IMG/VR virus record: IMGVR_UViG_3300029793_000467
DNA: 64,000 nucleotides
Origin: a virus
Strand: one strand, 5' to 3'
Part shown: piece after piece, positions 11,740-21,069 of the stretch
How positions within the stretch are numbered: the stretch's first letter is position 1
How the letters are laid out: each line of letters starts with the position of its first letter
Translations under genes and position numbers: made by a program
Notes under the pieces: generated by a model
Databases searched by the model: none
What the model saw: the letters and a program-made list of their open reading frames with translations, nothing else
What the model was told of the DNA's origin: nothing

Positions 11740-13380
11740 GTGGCGTGAAGAAGAAAAATCCCCTTCCCCACCGTTTTGCCGTGAGGGTGCCCCCGCCTTT
11801 AGGCGCGGGGAGGAATCACAGCTTTCTTTTTTCCATATTACGCGTAATGTGGTATTATTAGAAATATGAGCCAGAAAGTCGTGTTGGAGCGTGTGACGTT
11901 GGACGGTGCCAAACCGTTCATCGGTTATACCGGCCAGCATGACCCATGTTCCGAAAAGCTTTACGCGAATACCGGCAGTCAGGCGATGGAATGGCTTTGT
12001 GACGCTTGGCGTTACCGGTTCAACCAGTTAAGGTCGAACCGTTGCAAATACGGTAAGGACAAGACTCTCATCCCCATTGGCGGCACACCCGACACTCGTA
12101 GCGTCAGCCAGTCCCGAAGCGAATGTTCTTGGCTAACCGCAGTGCCTTCCCTTATCTTGGAATCCCCGACCAGAATCGAACGGGTCGAATGGTTCACCTC
12201 CGTGAAACGACGCAAGACCCTATTAAGCAAACGGTTGAAACCGGGGAGAATGCCCCGTTTCAAATCGTATAAGCGTGACGGGCAACGTTTCGTCTGCTGG
12301 TACAACGGGGGACGCAACGCCGTATACCGTCGAGTCAACCGCAACCACGGCATCATAACCATCACCGGACAGAACCCCAAAGGCATGTCATTGCCGGGCG
12401 AACCGTTACGCTACCGTATCCTCCTGCACGTGCGCGTCAGCCAGCCGATACGCGAATACACGGCCATCCAAGTGGATTGGACGAACCGTACCGTCGTGTT
12501 CAACAACATTCCAACGCCCATCAGTCATGAGCCGACCGGCAGGGCGGTCGGCATCGACCGTGGATGCGTGCATGCCGCCGCCGACTCCGACGGACGGTTC
12601 ATGGACCTGCCGAAAGACAGGTTGAAGGCCATCGACCGTGAAATCCGGAAGCGTCAGAAAAGCCAAGCCCGTAGGGTCAAGACAGCCGGATATTCCAGTG
12701 AGAAAGAATACGCGAATAGTGGCAGAACCAGCCGCGCATATTGGAAGACCCGGCTGGAAATCACAAAACTGCATTCGAAATCCGAACGTATATTGGATGA
12801 CGTGTACCAAAAATACACGACCCAACTCGTGTGTGACAATGATTTGATTGTGTTGGAGAACCTACGATTAGCGAACATGAGCCGACGCAACAAGCCTGTT
12901 CCCGACCCGTTGCATGAAGGCAGGTATCTTCACAATGGTCAGGTGGCGAAACGTGGACTCAACCGTAGCCTCCGACAGGCGAGCATGGGAAGACTGTCCT
13001 CCATGCTCGCATACAAGACCAAGCTTGCCGACGGCGTGGGCATGATACTCGTCAACCCGGCCTACACAAGCCAGACATGCAGTCAATGCGGGTATGTGGC
13101 GAAAGAAAACCGCGAGAGCCAAGCGGTGTTCATTTGCAAAAAATGCTCGTACAAGACGAACGCTGACGTGAACGCGGCGAAAAACATTCTCAAACGAGGA
13201 TTGGACACGCTCGCCGTCACGTCGGAAAACCTGTGGGGCGCGGACGGCACCCCGGTCGAACAGGGACGTAAGACCAACGGAAACGCTACACGCGAATCCG
13301 TGGCAGTCTCTTAGAAACCAGAACCTCTCCTACCGCAAAACGATAGGAGGAATCCCCCGGTTTAAACCGTGGGGAGGACG
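11740..13380 (+). mobile_element. IS200/IS605-family TnpB-only (IS1341-like) insertion sequence
   Basis: A single tnpB gene is flanked by subterminal hairpins (11789-11810 and 13354-13375). A GGAGGAATC word sits next to both hairpins. No TnpA gene is present. The insertion breaks the minus-strand gene array. Confidence 0.65.
11866..13314 (+). CDS. tnpB: TnpB (OrfB_IS605) RNA-guided nuclease-like transposon protein
   Basis: 482 aa. C-terminal RuvC-like region with a zinc finger (TSQTCSQCG...CKKC) and NADVNAAKNILKRG. Confidence 0.85.
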   Translation: MSQKVVLERVTLDGAKPFIGYTGQHDPCSEKLYANTGSQAMEWLCDAWRYRFNQLRSNRCKYGKDKTLIPIGGTPDTRSVSQSRSECSWLTAVPSLILESPTRIERVEWFTSVKRRKTLLSKRLKPGRMPRFKSYKRDGQRFVCWYNGGRNAVYRRVNRNHGIITITGQNPKGMSLPGEPLRYRILLHVRVSQPIREYTAIQVDWTNRTVVFNNIPTPISHEPTGRAVGIDRGCVHAAADSDGRFMDLPKDRLKAIDREIRKRQKSQARRVKTAGYSSEKEYANSGRTSRAYWKTRLEITKLHSKSERILDDVYQKYTTQLVCDNDLIVLENLRLANMSRRNKPVPDPLHEGRYLHNGQVAKRGLNRSLRQASMGRLSSMLAYKTKLADGVGMILVNPAYTSQTCSQCGYVAKENRESQAVFICKKCSYKTNADVNAAKNILKRGLDTLAVTSENLWGADGTPVEQGRKTNGNATRESVAVS

Positions 13381-15154: not shown

Positions 15155-16009
15155 TTAGCCGTGCAACGCGGTGATGATTTCGTCAGCGGCCTTACGGACA
15201 TGCTCGGCAGTGGAGCGTACAAGCTTGGGGTCAGCATCGCTCCACCCCGCCACGTAGCGGATGGAATACTCGCCGGTGTCCATTCCCATGTATCTAGCCA
15301 CCACATAGGCGACGCTTTCTGCCTCGGTCTCGTAGATGCCGCGATGCCGACCGTATTCACCTTCCGGCAACCCCTGATGGAGGAGCATGTGGGCCGTTTC
15401 GTGCAGGATGGTCTTGGCGTCCTGCCTCGGACTGTTCTTCGCGTTGAGTATGATTCGTCTGCTTCCATCCATCGTGGTGTAGCCTTTGACGTCCCTTCCC
15501 ATCGACTCATGGCCCACCCGCCAATGTTTGGATTCGAGCCAAGCGGTCATACGTCCGACGAGGCCGAGTACGTCTGCGCCTTCAAGCTCGGACGGCTTCA
15601 TCTGTTCGATGGGGTCGGTCTCCTTGTCGATGGGGTCGGTCTGGGACACGTCGAACACCGTCAAGATGGGATACCAGACTTTTTGGATAGGGTCGCCGTT
15701 CTCGTCTAGCTGTGGGTTGCCGTCTTCGTCCTTGACGGTTCTGGCGCTGAATCCGAAGATTTTCATACCGTGTTCGCCTTTGCGCACGACGCGCCCGCGC
15801 GTCTGCCATTGGCGGAATCCGGCGACCAGCGACGAGTTGCCGTTCGATTGAATGAGCATCAGCAGGATGTTGTTCCAGCTGTATTGGTGGAAACGTCCCA
15901 TGAAATCGAGGTAGCGCTGCCAAGTGCCGGAGTCCCGTAGTTCCTTCACGCCGGTTTCGATGTCCTTGCGCAGTTCCTCGATTCGTTCCCTGTGTTGCTT
16001 GTCTGCCAT
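15155..16009 (-). CDS. ardC: ArdC-like anti-restriction protein (N-terminal ssDNA-binding domain + C-terminal zincin-like metalloprotease)
   Basis: N-terminal motif WQRYLDFMGRFHQYSWNNILL (DUF1738-like). C-terminal HExxH motif LHETAHMLLH. This architecture is typical of plasmid leading-region ArdC. Confidence 0.7.
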   Translation of the reverse strand: MADKQHRERIEELRKDIETGVKELRDSGTWQRYLDFMGRFHQYSWNNILLMLIQSNGNSSLVAGFRQWQTRGRVVRKGEHGMKIFGFSARTVKDEDGNPQLDENGDPIQKVWYPILTVFDVSQTDPIDKETDPIEQMKPSELEGADVLGLVGRMTAWLESKHWRVGHESMGRDVKGYTTMDGSRRIILNAKNSPRQDAKTILHETAHMLLHQGLPEGEYGRHRGIYETEAESVAYVVARYMGMDTGEYSIRYVAGWSDADPKLVRSTAEHVRKAADEIITALHG

Positions 16010-16842: not shown

Positions 16843-17166
16843 TTAAGCTTCTACCAGCTCCCACCGGTCTCCAGCCTCTTCGTCGAATTCGCCTAATCGG
16901 AAACCATATGCGGCAAGCCTCCTGTCCGCCGTGGCCTCCCATTCGTCCTCGTCATCGCCGTATACATCTTCGACCCTCTCGGCATCGGAGTAGGAGTCGG
17001 CGCGTCCCAAGTTGATAAGCCATTGGGAGGAGTCAGCCCCCATCCAGATGCCATTGCCGGTGATGGCATCGACGATAAGAAGCGTGTCGAATGCATCGCT
17101 CCCGTAGATGGCTATCGGCTGAACAGTGACGGTCTCGTTGGTGTTGATGTCAAGTGCGGTAAACAT
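16843..17166 (-). CDS. hypothetical acidic protein
   Basis: Start at MFTALD. The promoter element 17194-17217 lies inside the long ORF. Confidence 0.4.
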   Translation of the reverse strand: MFTALDINTNETVTVQPIAIYGSDAFDTLLIVDAITGNGIWMGADSSQWLINLGRADSYSDAERVEDVYGDDEDEWEATADRRLAAYGFRLGEFDEEAGDRWELVEA

Positions 17167-17193
17167 TTCGGTTTTGTCTTTTCTTGTGTTTTT

Positions 17194-17217
17194 GTGTGAA
17201 CAATTCCAGTATACCAC
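17194..17217 (-). promoter_or_regulatory. conserved promoter element
   Basis: rc TGGTATACTGGAATTGTTCACACA. Confidence 0.55.
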
Positions 17218-17257
17218 ATGAATGGAGACATCCCCAAATAGCACACACTCCACTTGG

Positions 17258-18181
17258 TTAAATCTCGCGCTCCGCACGCTCCCAAATCTTCCGGCGAATC
17301 TCACTGTCCTCAGAGAACATCGCACCCAACTTCAACACTTGACGAACCGCCTTGCGATAATCCTCCATACGCACACGTAGAGTCCATCGAGCGTCGCCCT
17401 TGAACGCCTGATTGATGAACGAATCCGGCACGTCTCTCATATTCCGAGCCAGCCCGCAACGCTCCAGCCTGTCAGCCTCCTCCCACGCTTTCATAACGAT
17501 TTCACGGGTCGCCCACTGAGGTTTAACGTCCAGCACACTGGCCACGTCTTGCGGTTCGAGTCGTTTGAGCACTTCGTCCACCTCGCTGCCATCGGACGAG
17601 AGGGCCGCTTGGACGCGAATCCCGCTGTAAGGGCTTTCCAGCCAGTGGGACAAGCACTCCTTATCGACGTCATGGTTGCGGATGACATTGTAGACCACGC
17701 GCTCATTCTCCTCATTGAAGAAGTTGCAGACGTCGGCTTTCTTCGCCGCGATATAACGAACCTCCCAATCCTTGTCGTGGGATAGGGCGTTCGACGTTTC
17801 CTTGTCGAGCTTGTCGTACTTGTCGAGCAGTTCCACGGCTTTCCTGCGAATCTCCGCGCTCCTGTCCCGCAGGGCCACTTGGGAAAGTGCGTTGACCGGC
17901 AGGTTGTGAATATCGTATTCGCCCCAGTCGAAGTAGTAGTGTCGGAGCGTGAGCGGGAGTTCAGAAAGTTTGCCGGAGTCGAAATGCTGTCTGATGTCGG
18001 CTAGTTCCTTTTCGCCTTTTTGGGTGAGCTTCCACGAGTACCTGTCTTCGTTGCGTTGTATCAGTCCGGCGTTGGCGAGTTTGGTGAGGTTCCTGTTAGC
18101 GTATGCTTGTTGTTCTGGTTCGCTTTCGAAGAGGAGGAATTCGTAGATTGCGGTTTCGTTCCAATTGATGTTGTCGCTCAT
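17258..18181 (-). CDS. hypothetical protein (307 aa, alpha-helical repeat-like)
   Basis: Long ORF. Promoter element 18206-18230 lies 40 nt upstream. Confidence 0.5.
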   Translation of the reverse strand: MSDNINWNETAIYEFLLFESEPEQQAYANRNLTKLANAGLIQRNEDRYSWKLTQKGEKELADIRQHFDSGKLSELPLTLRHYYFDWGEYDIHNLPVNALSQVALRDRSAEIRRKAVELLDKYDKLDKETSNALSHDKDWEVRYIAAKKADVCNFFNEENERVVYNVIRNHDVDKECLSHWLESPYSGIRVQAALSSDGSEVDEVLKRLEPQDVASVLDVKPQWATREIVMKAWEEADRLERCGLARNMRDVPDSFINQAFKGDARWTLRVRMEDYRKAVRQVLKLGAMFSEDSEIRRKIWERAEREI

Positions 18182-18205
18182 TTCTGCTCCTTTTGGTTTC
18201 CTGTT

Positions 18206-18230
18206 TGTGTGAACAGTTCCAGTATAGTAC
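18206..18230 (-). promoter_or_regulatory. conserved promoter element
   Basis: rc TACTATACTGGAACTGTTCACACA. Confidence 0.55.
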
Positions 18231-18513
18231 AGAATAGAGAAATGCTCAACCCCGAACCCATTGACACTCCCGTGGTTTCAACCACGGGAGTGTCAAGTGA
18301 GCAACGGATACAAGTACGGCCCCGCACGGCATCTGGAGTATTTGAGCGCGCTGTTGCACTCCTTCAACCGTTCTATAGATGTCATTGCCGCCGACACGCA
18401 TCGGAAGGTGTGCGATGAGGAGAATCGTAAGTATGACCGTTTGGAGGATGAGCGGGAGAGGGCTTGGAACGCGGCTCGCTGACGTGGGGTGAGCATCCTT
18501 TTACGTCTACCTA

Positions 18514-18539
18514 TGTTATACTGGAATGGTTCACATAAG
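18514..18539 (+). promoter_or_regulatory. conserved promoter element in opposite (plus) orientation, no obvious downstream gene
   Basis: TGTTATACTGGAATGGTTCACATAAG. Points into the antisense strand of the Abi remnant. Confidence 0.45.
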
Positions 18540-18623
18540 TAGATTTGAACAGAGTCAGTTGGTCGTTGAATCCCAAGAGTTCCCAGAGGTTCCATAGGGC
18601 AAAATCGCCTTGCAGGCCGGTTT

Positions 18624-18773
18624 TCATGTCGTCGGTGTAGGGATTGTCGTGCAGAAGAAGTACGAGTTGTTCGAGAGGAACCTTCGGGCTTTCTCTTCGT
18701 CCATCAGGTCGAAGGTGACGCCATGCGAGACGAGGGTGTTTATCTGCTCATCCAACGTCGCTCGTTGCTTCAT
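18624..18773 (-). pseudogene. Abi_2 (AbiD/AbiF-like) abortive-infection gene N-terminal remnant
   Basis: The minus-strand ORF MKQRATLDEQINTLVSHGVTFDLMDEEKARRFLSNNSYFF... matches the characteristic Abi_2 N-terminus, then stops after 49 codons. The continuation is frame-shifted and unrecognisable. Confidence 0.4.
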
Positions 18774-18786
18774 CTTCACCTCTCAG

Positions 18787-18822
18787 AATAAAAAAACGGC
18801 GGCCGATGAATTCGACCGCCGT
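18787..18822 (-). terminator. rho-independent terminator (minus strand)
   Basis: Hairpin AACGGCGG..CCGCCGTT followed on the minus strand by a T8 run. Confidence 0.5.
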
Positions 18823-19185
18823 TCCGAGACGCCTCGGCGAACCAAGGCTTCTCTACGTTGTATGCCATACAATAGCCGCAATCTCCGGACTTTTCAATGA
18901 TAATCAGCCGTGCACCCAAGTCTTTCCGTTGGTTCTACGGCGTGTCGCTGGCATGCGGCGCGATGTGCCTCATCCTCGCCATCGGCGGACGGACCATCGC
19001 CGCCGGGGTCTTCGGAGCCGCCGCCGGGGTCTTCGGCTACTGCTGGCCTGTCAGACGGTGCGGCTTGTCTGTTATCGGGAAACTGACGCATTGGCCTCCA
19101 TGGTGATAGCGGGGTTTGCCATCCTCGTCTGGCTAGTGGTTCTCGCACGGCGGAATGGAGATTTTTGACGGTTCCAACAAACTAA

Positions 19186-19217
19186 GCTATAGTGGAACTG
19201 TTCACACAAATAAAAGG
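19186..19217 (+). promoter_or_regulatory. conserved promoter element with TTGACG -35
   Basis: TTGACG, a 17-nt spacer, then TATAGTGGAACTGTTCACACA. Confidence 0.55.
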
Positions 19218-19225
19218 GGAGAACG

Positions 19226-19489
19226 ATGACCGTAAACGAACTCATCGAACAATTAAAAAACCTACCCGAGGAAGTACGCGAACGCCCCATCATGGACGGC
19301 AATCCGAACGATGAATACTGGTTGGCCGACCTCCGCGCGATTTCAGTCGCCAAGGTCGTTGTATCCGGCGATGGCGCTTGTAACATGTACGACCCGGTAC
19401 TTTCCGACGAGGAAAACATCGAAGAACTGGAAAACAGATACGACATGTCAATGCATGTCGAACATCGGGCATTGGCGTTCTTCAATTGA
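19226..19489 (+). CDS. hypothetical protein (87 aa)
   Basis: A plus-orientated promoter element lies at 19186-19217, with a TTGACG -35 positioned 17 nt upstream. GGGGAG RBS. Confidence 0.5.
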   Translation: MTVNELIEQLKNLPEEVRERPIMDGNPNDEYWLADLRAISVAKVVVSGDGACNMYDPVLSDEENIEELENRYDMSMHVEHRALAFFN

Positions 19490-19505
19490 GATAGGGGTCG
19501 TACAA

Positions 19506-19976
19506 ATGGACGCGAACACTCCCATTAACATTCCCATCCGTCTTGAACAGTGGATACATGACAACTACATGGAAGTCGAAACCATTATCATCGATGCCCG
19601 GACAATCCTAGACGCAACCGATTTCGACAATCTTCCCGAATGGGAGGATTGGGGCGCGGACTTCATCGCGGAGGACGCTCAAAGAATTGGACTGCTGAAA
19701 ATGTGGTCTGGGCCGTTCACAGTCGAACTATTCAACTGTGACGAGTATCCCGACTATCTCGAATGGCGCAAAACTCATAAGACCGTCGAAGGTGCCGCAG
19801 AACACATTCTCGACTTGAGCAAGAAGGAACTACTGTGGCGAATCGAAGAAACCAAGAAGCAACTAGACAAGTATGTTAGCCAAATGACGCTGTTAAATGG
19901 AGGATTTGTTGACGCCGACAGGAGGGAAGACAAACATGGCCGAGGAATACTGGAAACGTCTTTGCCGCTCGTTTAA
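19506..19976 (+). CDS. hypothetical protein (156 aa)
   Basis: Start at MDANTP. Follows the previous gene by 17 nt. Confidence 0.45.
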   Translation: MDANTPINIPIRLEQWIHDNYMEVETIIIDARTILDATDFDNLPEWEDWGADFIAEDAQRIGLLKMWSGPFTVELFNCDEYPDYLEWRKTHKTVEGAAEHILDLSKKELLWRIEETKKQLDKYVSQMTLLNGGFVDADRREDKHGRGILETSLPLV

Positions 19977-20353
19977 CAAGAAATACGTTCATCAACCAAA
20001 CGCCCGAACCCATCAAACGGAACCAACGAATACACCAACCAGCCAACAAGCGCCAGCAATGCAAGCGCCGCAATCGCATACACCAGCGTACCCACGAACA
20101 AGCCAGCCAAAAACACGTTCATCTGCCGTTTGCGTTGCTCCAGCAGCTCATACCATTCGCTTTCGCACCGGTCGAATGCGTCAGCATCCATGCCGGTGCC
20201 TCCATGGGCTTGAAGCCAATCGCGTACGGTCGGCATGGGAGGTAGCGGGTCGGATATGCAAGCGTGCGGTACAAGCGCGGTTTTAAGCCCTTGCCAAACG
20301 CCGTTGAAAAAGAACGCGGGAAAACGTGCGGCCTTCACCGTGCTGGGTATCAT
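19973..20353 (-). CDS. membrane protein (C-terminal TM)
   Basis: Start at MIPSTV. ATGA overlap with the stop of 20350..21069. Confidence 0.4.
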   Translation of the reverse strand: MIPSTVKAARFPAFFFNGVWQGLKTALVPHACISDPLPPMPTVRDWLQAHGGTGMDADAFDRCESEWYELLEQRKRQMNVFLAGLFVGTLVYAIAALALLALVGWLVYSLVPFDGFGRLVDERISC

Positions 20354-21069
20354 TTTTCCACCTGCTGCCTTCGTCCGACAATCTTCTTGCCGCCCACGCT
20401 CCGCAACCATGCCAAGCCATGACCATAGGAGACCATACCGGCTTCGACGGTTGGATTCTGCTGGAACATGTAATGCACTTCCGCGAGTCCATTGCCTCCG
20501 TTTGTTTGCAGAATACGAATCCCGTAATCCTTTTCGACTGCCTTGACCGCCATGTCCCGTTCGAGTTCGTCGAACCAGCCGTAGAGCGGGAGCATGGCGA
20601 ATGCGGTCAATGCGCCTACGGCGATGAACCGCCAACATGTTTTCGCTCCTACCAACAATGCGATTGCCGCCACGAGAATTCCAATGACGGCGATTCCCGT
20701 CAACAGTTGACGCCATTTGCCGTTGCAGTCGTATTCGACGGGCGCGTACGGGTTGGTGGGGGTTGGTGTTGGAGGTGCGGTTTTGTTGGTTTTGCGTGTG
20801 GCGGGCTTGTAGGCTTTCGGAGCGGTTTTGTTTACTGTTGAAGTGGTTTTCTCGCTCGTCTTGCTGGCGGTTTCGTCGGTGTTTTCAATGGACTTGTCCG
20901 CTGTTTTCGGTTCGAATTTCAATGGTGGTGCCGGTGGGTTCAGCATTTTTCGTTCCGTTTTCTTCACGATTTCTTGCAGTTCGATGGTGGTGGACGAGTC
21001 GGGTTCGTCCATTGGTTTCTGACCTAATATCATGAGGTCGTTTTCCAGTGAGATATTCCGTTCTTTCAT
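20350..21069 (-). CDS. membrane-anchored protein with Thr/Pro/Lys-rich linker
   Basis: Start MKERN with an AAAGGAAG RBS. The 40-bp conserved element lies upstream, inside the longer ORF. One TM helix. Confidence 0.45.
   Translation of the reverse strand: MKERNISLENDLMILGQKPMDEPDSSTTIELQEIVKKTERKMLNPPAPPLKFEPKTADKSIENTDETASKTSEKTTSTVNKTAPKAYKPATRKTNKTAPPTPTPTNPYAPVEYDCNGKWRQLLTGIAVIGILVAAIALLVGAKTCWRFIAVGALTAFAMLPLYGWFDELERDMAVKAVEKDYGIRILQTNGGNGLAEVHYMFQQNPTVEAGMVSYGHGLAWLRSVGGKKIVGRRQQVEK

Follow-up and report, generated by a model that had tools for sequence, protein, structure and literature searches.

The DNA analysed here, referred to as the window, is a 64,000-nucleotide (nt) stretch filed as viral in IMG/VR (IMGVR_UViG_3300029793_000467) and treated below as part of a pMP7017-like Bifidobacterium megaplasmid; the locus in question holds what appears to be the stump of an AbiF/AbiD-type abortive-infection (Abi_2) gene, together with the region that precedes it. 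A sequence-only reading of the window had reported a minus-strand open reading frame (ORF) at 18624-18773 with the N terminus of AbiD/AbiF proteins, a copy of a repeated promoter at 18514-18539 and a minus-strand terminator at 18787-18822, and all three were found at these positions, above chance. The ORF spans 18624..18779 from a GTG start, and an ATG at 18773 gives the 49 codons after which it had been said to stop. Its first 41 residues aligned to positions 2-40 of the 277-position PADLOC profile for AbiD (E = 4.7e-7), and residues 1-40 were 100% identical to those of P0015, an intact relative of 382 amino acids (aa) that heads a cluster of 1160 sequences and is encoded in the same context, the chromosomal island described below. 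Profile searching had been proposed as the deciding check on the family assignment. In Pfam, the 51-aa fragment ORF and its frame-corrected versions gave no match to Abi_2; the reconstructed 382-aa parent gene, 99% identical to P0015, matched Abi_2 (PF07751) over residues 31-195 at 30.7 bits against a cutoff of 25.6.

A tblastn search with full-length P0015 against the whole window recovered only residues 1-40 and 126-163, leaving 78 of 382 toxin codons, and the further C-terminal frames for which such a search had been suggested were not seen. The HEPN motif R186-x4-H191 (within RNAVSH), invariant in a 16-sequence alignment of homologues, falls outside the retained residues and is absent from the window. 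Judged from its sequence, the toxin gene in the window is dead and constitutes a remnant, not a working system, which bears out the earlier description of a decayed Abi_2 gene carried on a mobile element. It had also been proposed that the toxin was deliberately silenced; in that case it might be a recoverable gene kept off by the terminator and by antisense transcription. The N terminus, ribosome-binding site (RBS) and regulatory region are indeed intact, but residues 41-125 and 164-382 are missing from the whole window, the catalytic motif at 186-191 among them; no toxin is left to silence because that motif is absent, and the proposal is effectively refuted. Chromosomal Abi_2 genes are independently broken in some genomes, by a stop codon at W149, a +1 frameshift in a run of A near codon 51 or a stop in place of Q (L001 6001-7149; L006-L009 6001-7150; L004 43-1210), with the intact allele still the commonest. 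That the chromosomal gene is a pseudogene everywhere was considered and rejected on the strength of the 1160-member cluster of intact proteins.

An AlphaFold2 model of P0015 (predicted local distance difference test 88.6, predicted template-modelling score 0.83) was compared with the PDB using Foldseek. The top match was 8vz6_A, PbAbiF bound to its noncoding RNA (E = 2.1e-3, probability 1.00, template-modelling score 0.53 when normalised to the target), which was also the sole credible match, the next having an E value of 0.27 or worse. As modelled, the parent protein has an AbiF-like fold. The Abi_2 gene of Bifidobacterium overlaps a gene for a 256-aa RNase_T protein, a DEDDh exonuclease, and in other species Abi_2 and RNase_T are fused into single proteins of 527-562 aa (the two arrangements together: L186 2501-4416; L187; L189, P0025; P0023, P0027 and P0028). 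Such an arrangement suggests a two-enzyme effector, which is not described for AbiF.

The region upstream of the stump has survived intact. A consensus terminator scan returned a minus-strand hairpin of 14 pairs (8 G-C) at 18825-18793 with a T-run behind it, and the leader with its terminator folded at -41.2 kcal/mol (z = -4.4). The imported piece contains this terminator, which precedes the Abi_2 RBS by 10 nt. All 133 nt upstream of the start codon, leader included, are identical to the intact chromosomal locus L186, and there is no promoter between the terminator and the Abi_2 start, the distance from the U-run to the ATG being only about 10 nt, taken up by the RBS. The terminator was found to end an approximately 75-nt leader RNA of Abi_2 genes that has its own predicted sigma-70-type promoter. 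It had been called an orphan, which it is not, being native to a conserved leader RNA that precedes intact Abi_2 genes.

To follow this leader across homologues, sequences were taken from 74 loci. The same order of ACWACGU, a first hairpin (P1), GG, terminator, U-run, RBS and start codon was found upstream of Abi_2 genes whose products range from 99% down to 37-38% identity. The terminator keeps its position, with unlike but compensated stems, in homologues of 82%, 57% and 49% identity and in more distant ones, and hexamers resembling a -10 element, read by eye from the sequences, lie 6-7 nt upstream of ACWACGU. Twenty distinct P1 sequences were present among the homologues, and all fold alike. 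Alignment of full leaders with MAFFT and RNAalifold gave a poor consensus, the terminator stems being unalignable, and was replaced by an alignment of P1 and a covariance model, R1, built from it. In the gapless alignment of nine P1 sequences of equal length, pairing held in 88.9% of cells, against 73.8% in shuffles and 34-46% with a slid partner; compensatory changes occurred in 7 of 12 pairs, and this covariation was reached by none of 500 shuffles. The covariance model had one match in the window, at 18824-18863 (61.1 bits). Among 84 Abi_2 loci it matched 46, in every case at a distance of 50-90 nt upstream of the gene. A scan of the leader against Rfam returned only sub-threshold matches to generic small RNAs. 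No evidence was found for an alternative antiterminator pairing, a point that was not pursued.

AbiF and AbiD have only recently been shown to form protein-RNA toxin-antitoxin (TA) modules, and have been proposed as ancestors of Cas13. The AbiD/F group has been described as a protein plus an RNA (PMC13064643), and the complex of Prevotellaceae PbAbiF with its noncoding RNA has been solved (8VZ6; PMC12737573). RCd22 of Clostridioides difficile has a SigA promoter at its start and a Rho-independent terminator at its end, no promoter lies between it and abiF, and it neutralises the AbiF toxin both in cis and in trans (PMC12373285). For abiD1 of Lactococcus lactis, the only visible transcript is of 50 nt and stops at a terminator just upstream of the gene, with a poly-U stretch preceding the RBS (PMC2661086). 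The parent locus resembles the type III TA systems of AbiF (AbiFCd/RCd22 and PbAbiF/AbiFr) in its succession of sigma-70-type promoter, structured small RNA, Rho-independent terminator, RBS and Abi_2/HEPN gene, in the lack of a promoter between terminator and gene, and in that the best and sole credible fold match of its protein is PbAbiF. It differs from them in its leader RNA, which has a single conserved hairpin besides the terminator and is not matched by RF03085, the Rfam abiF motif, and in its protein, which has a greater length (382 aa), a coiled coil at the C terminus and a DEDDh exonuclease coupled or fused to it; in the window, moreover, the toxin has been destroyed. With the abiD1 leader, whose terminator lies inside a 76-nt translation initiation region, it shares the arrangement of a terminator, the end of a short transcript in abiD1, just upstream of the gene and a poly-U stretch directly before the RBS, but the sequences are unrelated (AU-rich in abiD1, GC-rich here) and for abiD1 the emphasis has been on sequestration of the RBS and activation by phage Orf1. 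Since architecture and fold match parallel the described systems, the Bifidobacterium locus would be expected to work as an AbiF-type module. The leader RNA is filed, by analogy, as a new variant of the RNA upstream of AbiF that lies outside RF03085, and the analogy argues strongly for a role as antitoxin and attenuator of the system.

The source of the stump was located by blastn: positions 18538-19040 are 503 bp of DNA from a Bifidobacterium chromosomal integrative island, at 97-99.5% identity. The stretch 18654-19040 is 99.2-99.5% identical to the island loci, and 18538-18653 is 97.4-98.3% identical to an island stretch 257 nt further along, so that relative to the island there is an internal 257-nt deletion at 18653|18654, which has no microhomology and shifts the frame. 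Homology to the island ends at approximately 18538-18545, just past the promoter motif, and at 19040, where there is an overlap of about 11 nt (19030-19040). An exact 18-nt direct repeat, CGCCGCCGGGGTCTTCGG, occurs twice, 21 nt apart, at 18998-19036, in the 54-aa ORF beside this right junction. The island itself was found through close protein relatives of the Abi fragment on chromosomal contigs, where its integrase adjoins proC-ychF. It comprises, in order, the integrase, HicAB, a 306-aa ORF, a 175-aa ORF, a 68-aa xis-like ORF, a 54-aa ORF, Abi_2 and the overlapping RNase_T (DEDDh) gene, with the 68-aa and 54-aa ORFs on the opposite strand. The neighbouring YchF is 94-95% identical in protein and at most 89% in nucleotide sequence to that of several Bifidobacterium species, and the island contigs were therefore placed in this genus.

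On the plasmid side, the insert replaced an 85-aa gene downstream of the promoter, in the form of the island piece followed by the last 43 codons of a plasmid membrane-protein gene (Table 1). This configuration (type A) is shared by the window, contig L003 and four IMG/VR contigs, all with identical junctions and deletion and with 3 single-nucleotide polymorphisms (SNPs) in 590 nt. An exact 30-mer from the Abi start had no match in viral contigs, owing to a synonymous SNP, or in genome contigs. The anatomy of the stump and its acquisition by the megaplasmid from a chromosomal integrative island are well supported by these comparisons.

Table 1. Features in and around the locus, in window coordinates.
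Feature	Position	Strand	Details
Cassette of 1730 bp holding the promoter and the parts of the stump	18261..19990	+	Absent in many sister plasmids
Promoter copy of the pMP7017 family	18514..18538	+	TGn extended -10 TGTTATACT plus GGAATGGTTCACATAA; at its native position in the cassette; 85-aa cargo gene replaced
Out-of-frame Abi_2 remnant, codons ~126-163	18541..18653	-	From blastn to the island and tblastn; left junction with plasmid ~18538-18545
Abi_2 codons 1-40	18654..18773	-	Frameshift at the deletion junction; 49-codon ORF ends at 18624
Abi_2 RBS, GAGAGG	18779..18784	-	Directly after the U-run; same arrangement in homologues
Intrinsic terminator (P2, 13-14 bp stem + U7)	18787..18825	-	3' end of the leader (candidate antitoxin) RNA
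5' part of the leader RNA	18826..18861	-	Predicted start ACAACGU ~18861; 12-bp hairpin P1 18853-18826, apical GGUUCGCC
Predicted sigma-70-type promoter of the leader RNA and Abi_2 unit	18869..18897	-	TTGAAA, 17-nt spacer, TATTGT
First 48 codons of the island 54-aa small membrane-type ORF	18897..19040	+	Runs on as a chimeric 69-aa ORF to 19106
3' 43 codons of the plasmid small membrane-protein gene	19041..19168	+	81% identical to L083 4379-4515; frame differs from that of the 54-aa ORF
Next copy of the promoter motif	19165..19209	+	TTGACG, 17-nt spacer, TATAGT; predicted to drive the 87-aa gene 19226-19489

The promoter copy behind which the island piece lies (plus strand, 18517-18538, TATACTGGAATGGTTCACATAA) has 2 mismatches to the window consensus TATACTGGAATTGTTCACACAA, which occurs in 15 copies at up to 3 mismatches against 0 expected in shuffled sequence; at up to 4 mismatches, 17 copies of the motif were counted in the window. 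A promoter scan found no -35 hexamer for the copy at 18517-18538. In pMP7017, a 34-bp motif found only in that plasmid family, AWAYATGY TATACT GAATATGTCCACATAAAAWA, overlaps the -10 element of 19 promoters (PMC10832533). Comparison with the published motif showed a match at 18514-18538. The window form, (A)TGY TATACT GGAATTGTTCACACAA, corresponds to the published one and, as in pMP7017, is present in many copies fronting small cargo genes; the window plasmid is, however, a distant relative (76% nucleotide identity in dnaB), and the copy at 18514-18538 no longer has its gene. It is the only one of the 17 that lacks both an RBS and a gene within about 20-45 nt. Six sister plasmids (L081-84, L086 and L088) share this promoter copy, its upstream sequence and its TGn extended -10, and in these it is followed by an RBS, an 85-aa gene and the next promoter. 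On this comparison the promoter keeps its ancestral place and orientation, and the host DNA has been inserted antisense behind it. The sequence-only reading was thus right that a promoter copy is present and points antisense into the fragment, and mistaken in calling it inverted.

Stumps that keep the RNA gene without the toxin were found in three independently truncated forms, with breakpoints at codon 40 (type A), codon 33 (L005) and codon 6 (type C; L273 and L275). In L005, a plasmid-like contig with RepA_C and sortase genes, positions 1-655 comprise the promoter, RNA, terminator and RBS, followed by 33 Abi codons that continue as a fusion into an unrelated 111-aa ORF (P0014); a sequence resembling the promoter motif follows at 665. 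Type C, in IMG/VR contigs 176224 and 174446 (L273 1685-3419 and L275 1-1113), retains the RNA gene and, of Abi_2, 6 codons, which abut an IS607-like tnpA truncated at its 5' end, with a frameshifted tnpB. On the xis side it takes in more of the island than type A; it carries a 182-nt deletion that fuses the 54-aa ORF in frame to the xis-like C terminus, and lies in sister megaplasmids at the window equivalent of 47750|47751, a different plasmid site. No plasmid promoter motif points into the L005 or the type C stump. A peptide-pattern search of IMG/VR along the whole toxin returned the four type A contigs only, and no middle or C-terminal parts of the toxin.

One use for the insert that involves neither the RNA nor the full toxin would be as cargo encoding a small protein. 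The candidates are the chimeric 69-aa membrane-type ORF (18897-19106), for which either the plasmid promoter or one of its own would serve, and the 49-aa N-terminal Abi_2 peptide, as a dominant negative. Neither ORF is interrupted in any type A copy, and type C preserves the first 32 codons of the 54-aa ORF in an in-frame fusion to the xis-like C terminus. The C-terminal parts nevertheless vary with the configuration, as products of frame changes, there is no RBS before 18897, no family matches were obtained, and type C retains only 6 Abi_2 codons, all of which makes this explanation very improbable.

A second alternative, raised in the sequence-only reading as a possible regulatory RNA, assigns the function to the plasmid promoter. 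Transcription from 18517 across the stump would yield an RNA able to pair with the leader RNA and with the 5' end of the chromosomal Abi_2 mRNA, and such an RNA could modulate the host system. The promoter is well formed and belongs to a motif family tied to highly transcribed genes of pMP7017, the junction lies within about 10-20 nt of the expected transcript start, the only plus-strand terminators before 18897 are weak, and the stump is 99% complementary to the host gene. The promoter is, however, older than the insert and originally served the 85-aa gene; in the other two stump types the leader RNA gene is kept although no plasmid promoter lies antisense to it in the vicinity. Pairing with an antitoxin RNA would also be expected to free the toxin, to the harm of the plasmid's own host, and there is no defined 3' end for an RNA of this kind. 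Because three truncations spare the RNA unit and remove the toxin, a solo antitoxin is favoured over an antisense regulator, which is considered unlikely.

The reading preferred here, to which a probability of roughly 50% is given, is that the locus is a solo antitoxin-RNA cassette that is still active, whether selected or not. The captured stump of the AbiF/AbiD-type module has taken the place of the 85-aa gene behind one of the repeated plasmid promoters, with the module's own promoter, its structured leader RNA of about 75 nt and the terminator remaining intact. The leader RNA would still be transcribed from the plasmid and would bind the AbiF-like toxin encoded by the identical chromosomal system in trans, so that the plasmid would carry a solo antitoxin that dampens host defence. 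A comparable case is reportedly that of phage PhiTE, said to carry a pseudo-ToxI or captured toxI, so that a mobile element has the antitoxin RNA of a type III TA/Abi system of its host but no toxin (RNA antitoxin mimicry). The window plasmid likewise has an RNA gene matching the host antitoxin candidate, over the 133 nt identical to L186, and no toxin. Here, however, a megaplasmid takes the place of the lytic phage, the RNA copies that of the host exactly and has a promoter of its own instead of being a mimic or expanded repeat, and protection is putative. The locus falls under two known kinds, the AbiF-type module and the capture of an RNA antitoxin by a mobile element.

Several points weigh against a solo antitoxin, and a number of them are the same ones that recommend its most serious competitor, an inert recombination scar, in which host island DNA landed by illegitimate recombination and is decaying, with nothing in it, the leader RNA included, selected or of consequence. 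Both ends of the insert are illegitimate, with no real homology at either junction, the internal 257-nt deletion lacks microhomology, and the neighbouring 54-aa ORF and a plasmid gene are truncated as well, which together have the look of neutral scarring. All type A copies go back to a single ancestral event and are too alike, at 3 SNPs in 590 nt, to give any power to detect selection; remnants of an IS607-like element adjoin the type C stump, and the whole region is a zone of shuffled cassettes. One larger ancestral insert, trimmed in different ways, could have given rise to all three stumps, and a toxic gene would be expected to be lost anyway. The host has its own antitoxin in cis, and the plasmid promoter, which converges on the RNA gene, may hinder its transcription; that transcription, like the binding of the RNA to the toxin, is a prediction. 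The connection to AbiF is itself built on Pfam, fold and architecture because two further searches were negative: RF03085 had no match at E values up to 10 in window positions 18450-19250 and 11 Bifidobacterium Abi_2 loci, and a sequence profile of the parent protein found no matching chain in the PDB.

Against a mere scar, three different truncations spare the promoter, RNA and terminator while cutting the toxin to 6-40 codons, no plasmid or viral contig with other parts of the toxin was found in the IMG/VR peptide-pattern search, and the RNA unit is identical in sequence to that of intact loci. The scar remains a serious possibility, rated below even odds. The recurrence of the stumps does not prove selection, and whether the cassette is a selected anti-defence device or simply what is left after loss of the toxic part is not settled. 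The wider proposition, that megaplasmids have repeatedly captured an AbiF-like antitoxin RNA gene, shed the toxin and neutralise the chromosomal toxin in trans, the RNA being an undescribed actinobacterial AbiF antitoxin outside the Rfam motif, is put forward tentatively and is on balance doubtful.

In many sister plasmids the larger cassette in which the stump lies is missing, and positions 18260 and 19991 are contiguous; its site in L003 is a different one, beside the counterpart of the promoter copy at window 55895. At the exact left end of the cassette, 18261-18296 form a perfect palindrome (17-nt arms, 2-nt loop). L003, in which the shared cassette sequence begins only at 18297, lacks this palindrome, whose role could be that of a terminator or of a recombination site. 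The region is mosaic among sister plasmids (L011, L022, L047, L058 and L075, and L003), others of which have a different insert of about 0.5 kb with a duplicated promoter, and the repeated promoters may serve as recombination points.

Assignment of the window to a pMP7017-like Bifidobacterium megaplasmid was based on its dnaB region, gene order, promoter motif and the lack of virion genes among the large ORFs tested. The dnaB region is 76% identical in nucleotide sequence to that of Bifidobacterium longum plasmids of 184-198 kb, and the gene order near dnaB (a ParA-like gene, a 400-aa ORF, a 150-aa ORF and a gene for a protein of approximately 880 aa) matches theirs. About 30 relatives of 100-217 kb in IMG/VR, filed as viral genomes, carry the pMP7017-type motif. 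Ten large ORFs of the window were tested and gave replication and partition functions and no virion structural genes. A phage origin, considered in view of the IMG/VR relatives, was rejected on these grounds. A megablast search with window positions 17000-21000 found no match among plasmids and phages. Elsewhere in the window, a TnpB/IS605-family ORF with a Cas12f1-like TNB domain (11866-13314, plus strand) and a protein with ArdC-N and M78 peptidase domains (15155-16009, minus strand) sit among small promoter-led genes, in what looks like an anti-restriction and cargo region.

Members of the pMP7017 megaplasmid family are common in infant gut bifidobacteria. The results point to a conserved leader RNA, and candidate antitoxin, for the Bifidobacterium branch of AbiF that is missed by the current Rfam model, and to plasmid-borne copies of it in three truncated forms without the toxin. 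Should the solo-antitoxin reading fail, the locus would still be a well-documented case of host defence DNA picked up and eroded in a cassette-shuffling region of a plasmid. If it is true, the toxin-less copies would be a plasmid analogue of the hijacking of RNA antitoxins by phages, and would add an RNA-based anti-defence device to the cargo of this megaplasmid family.

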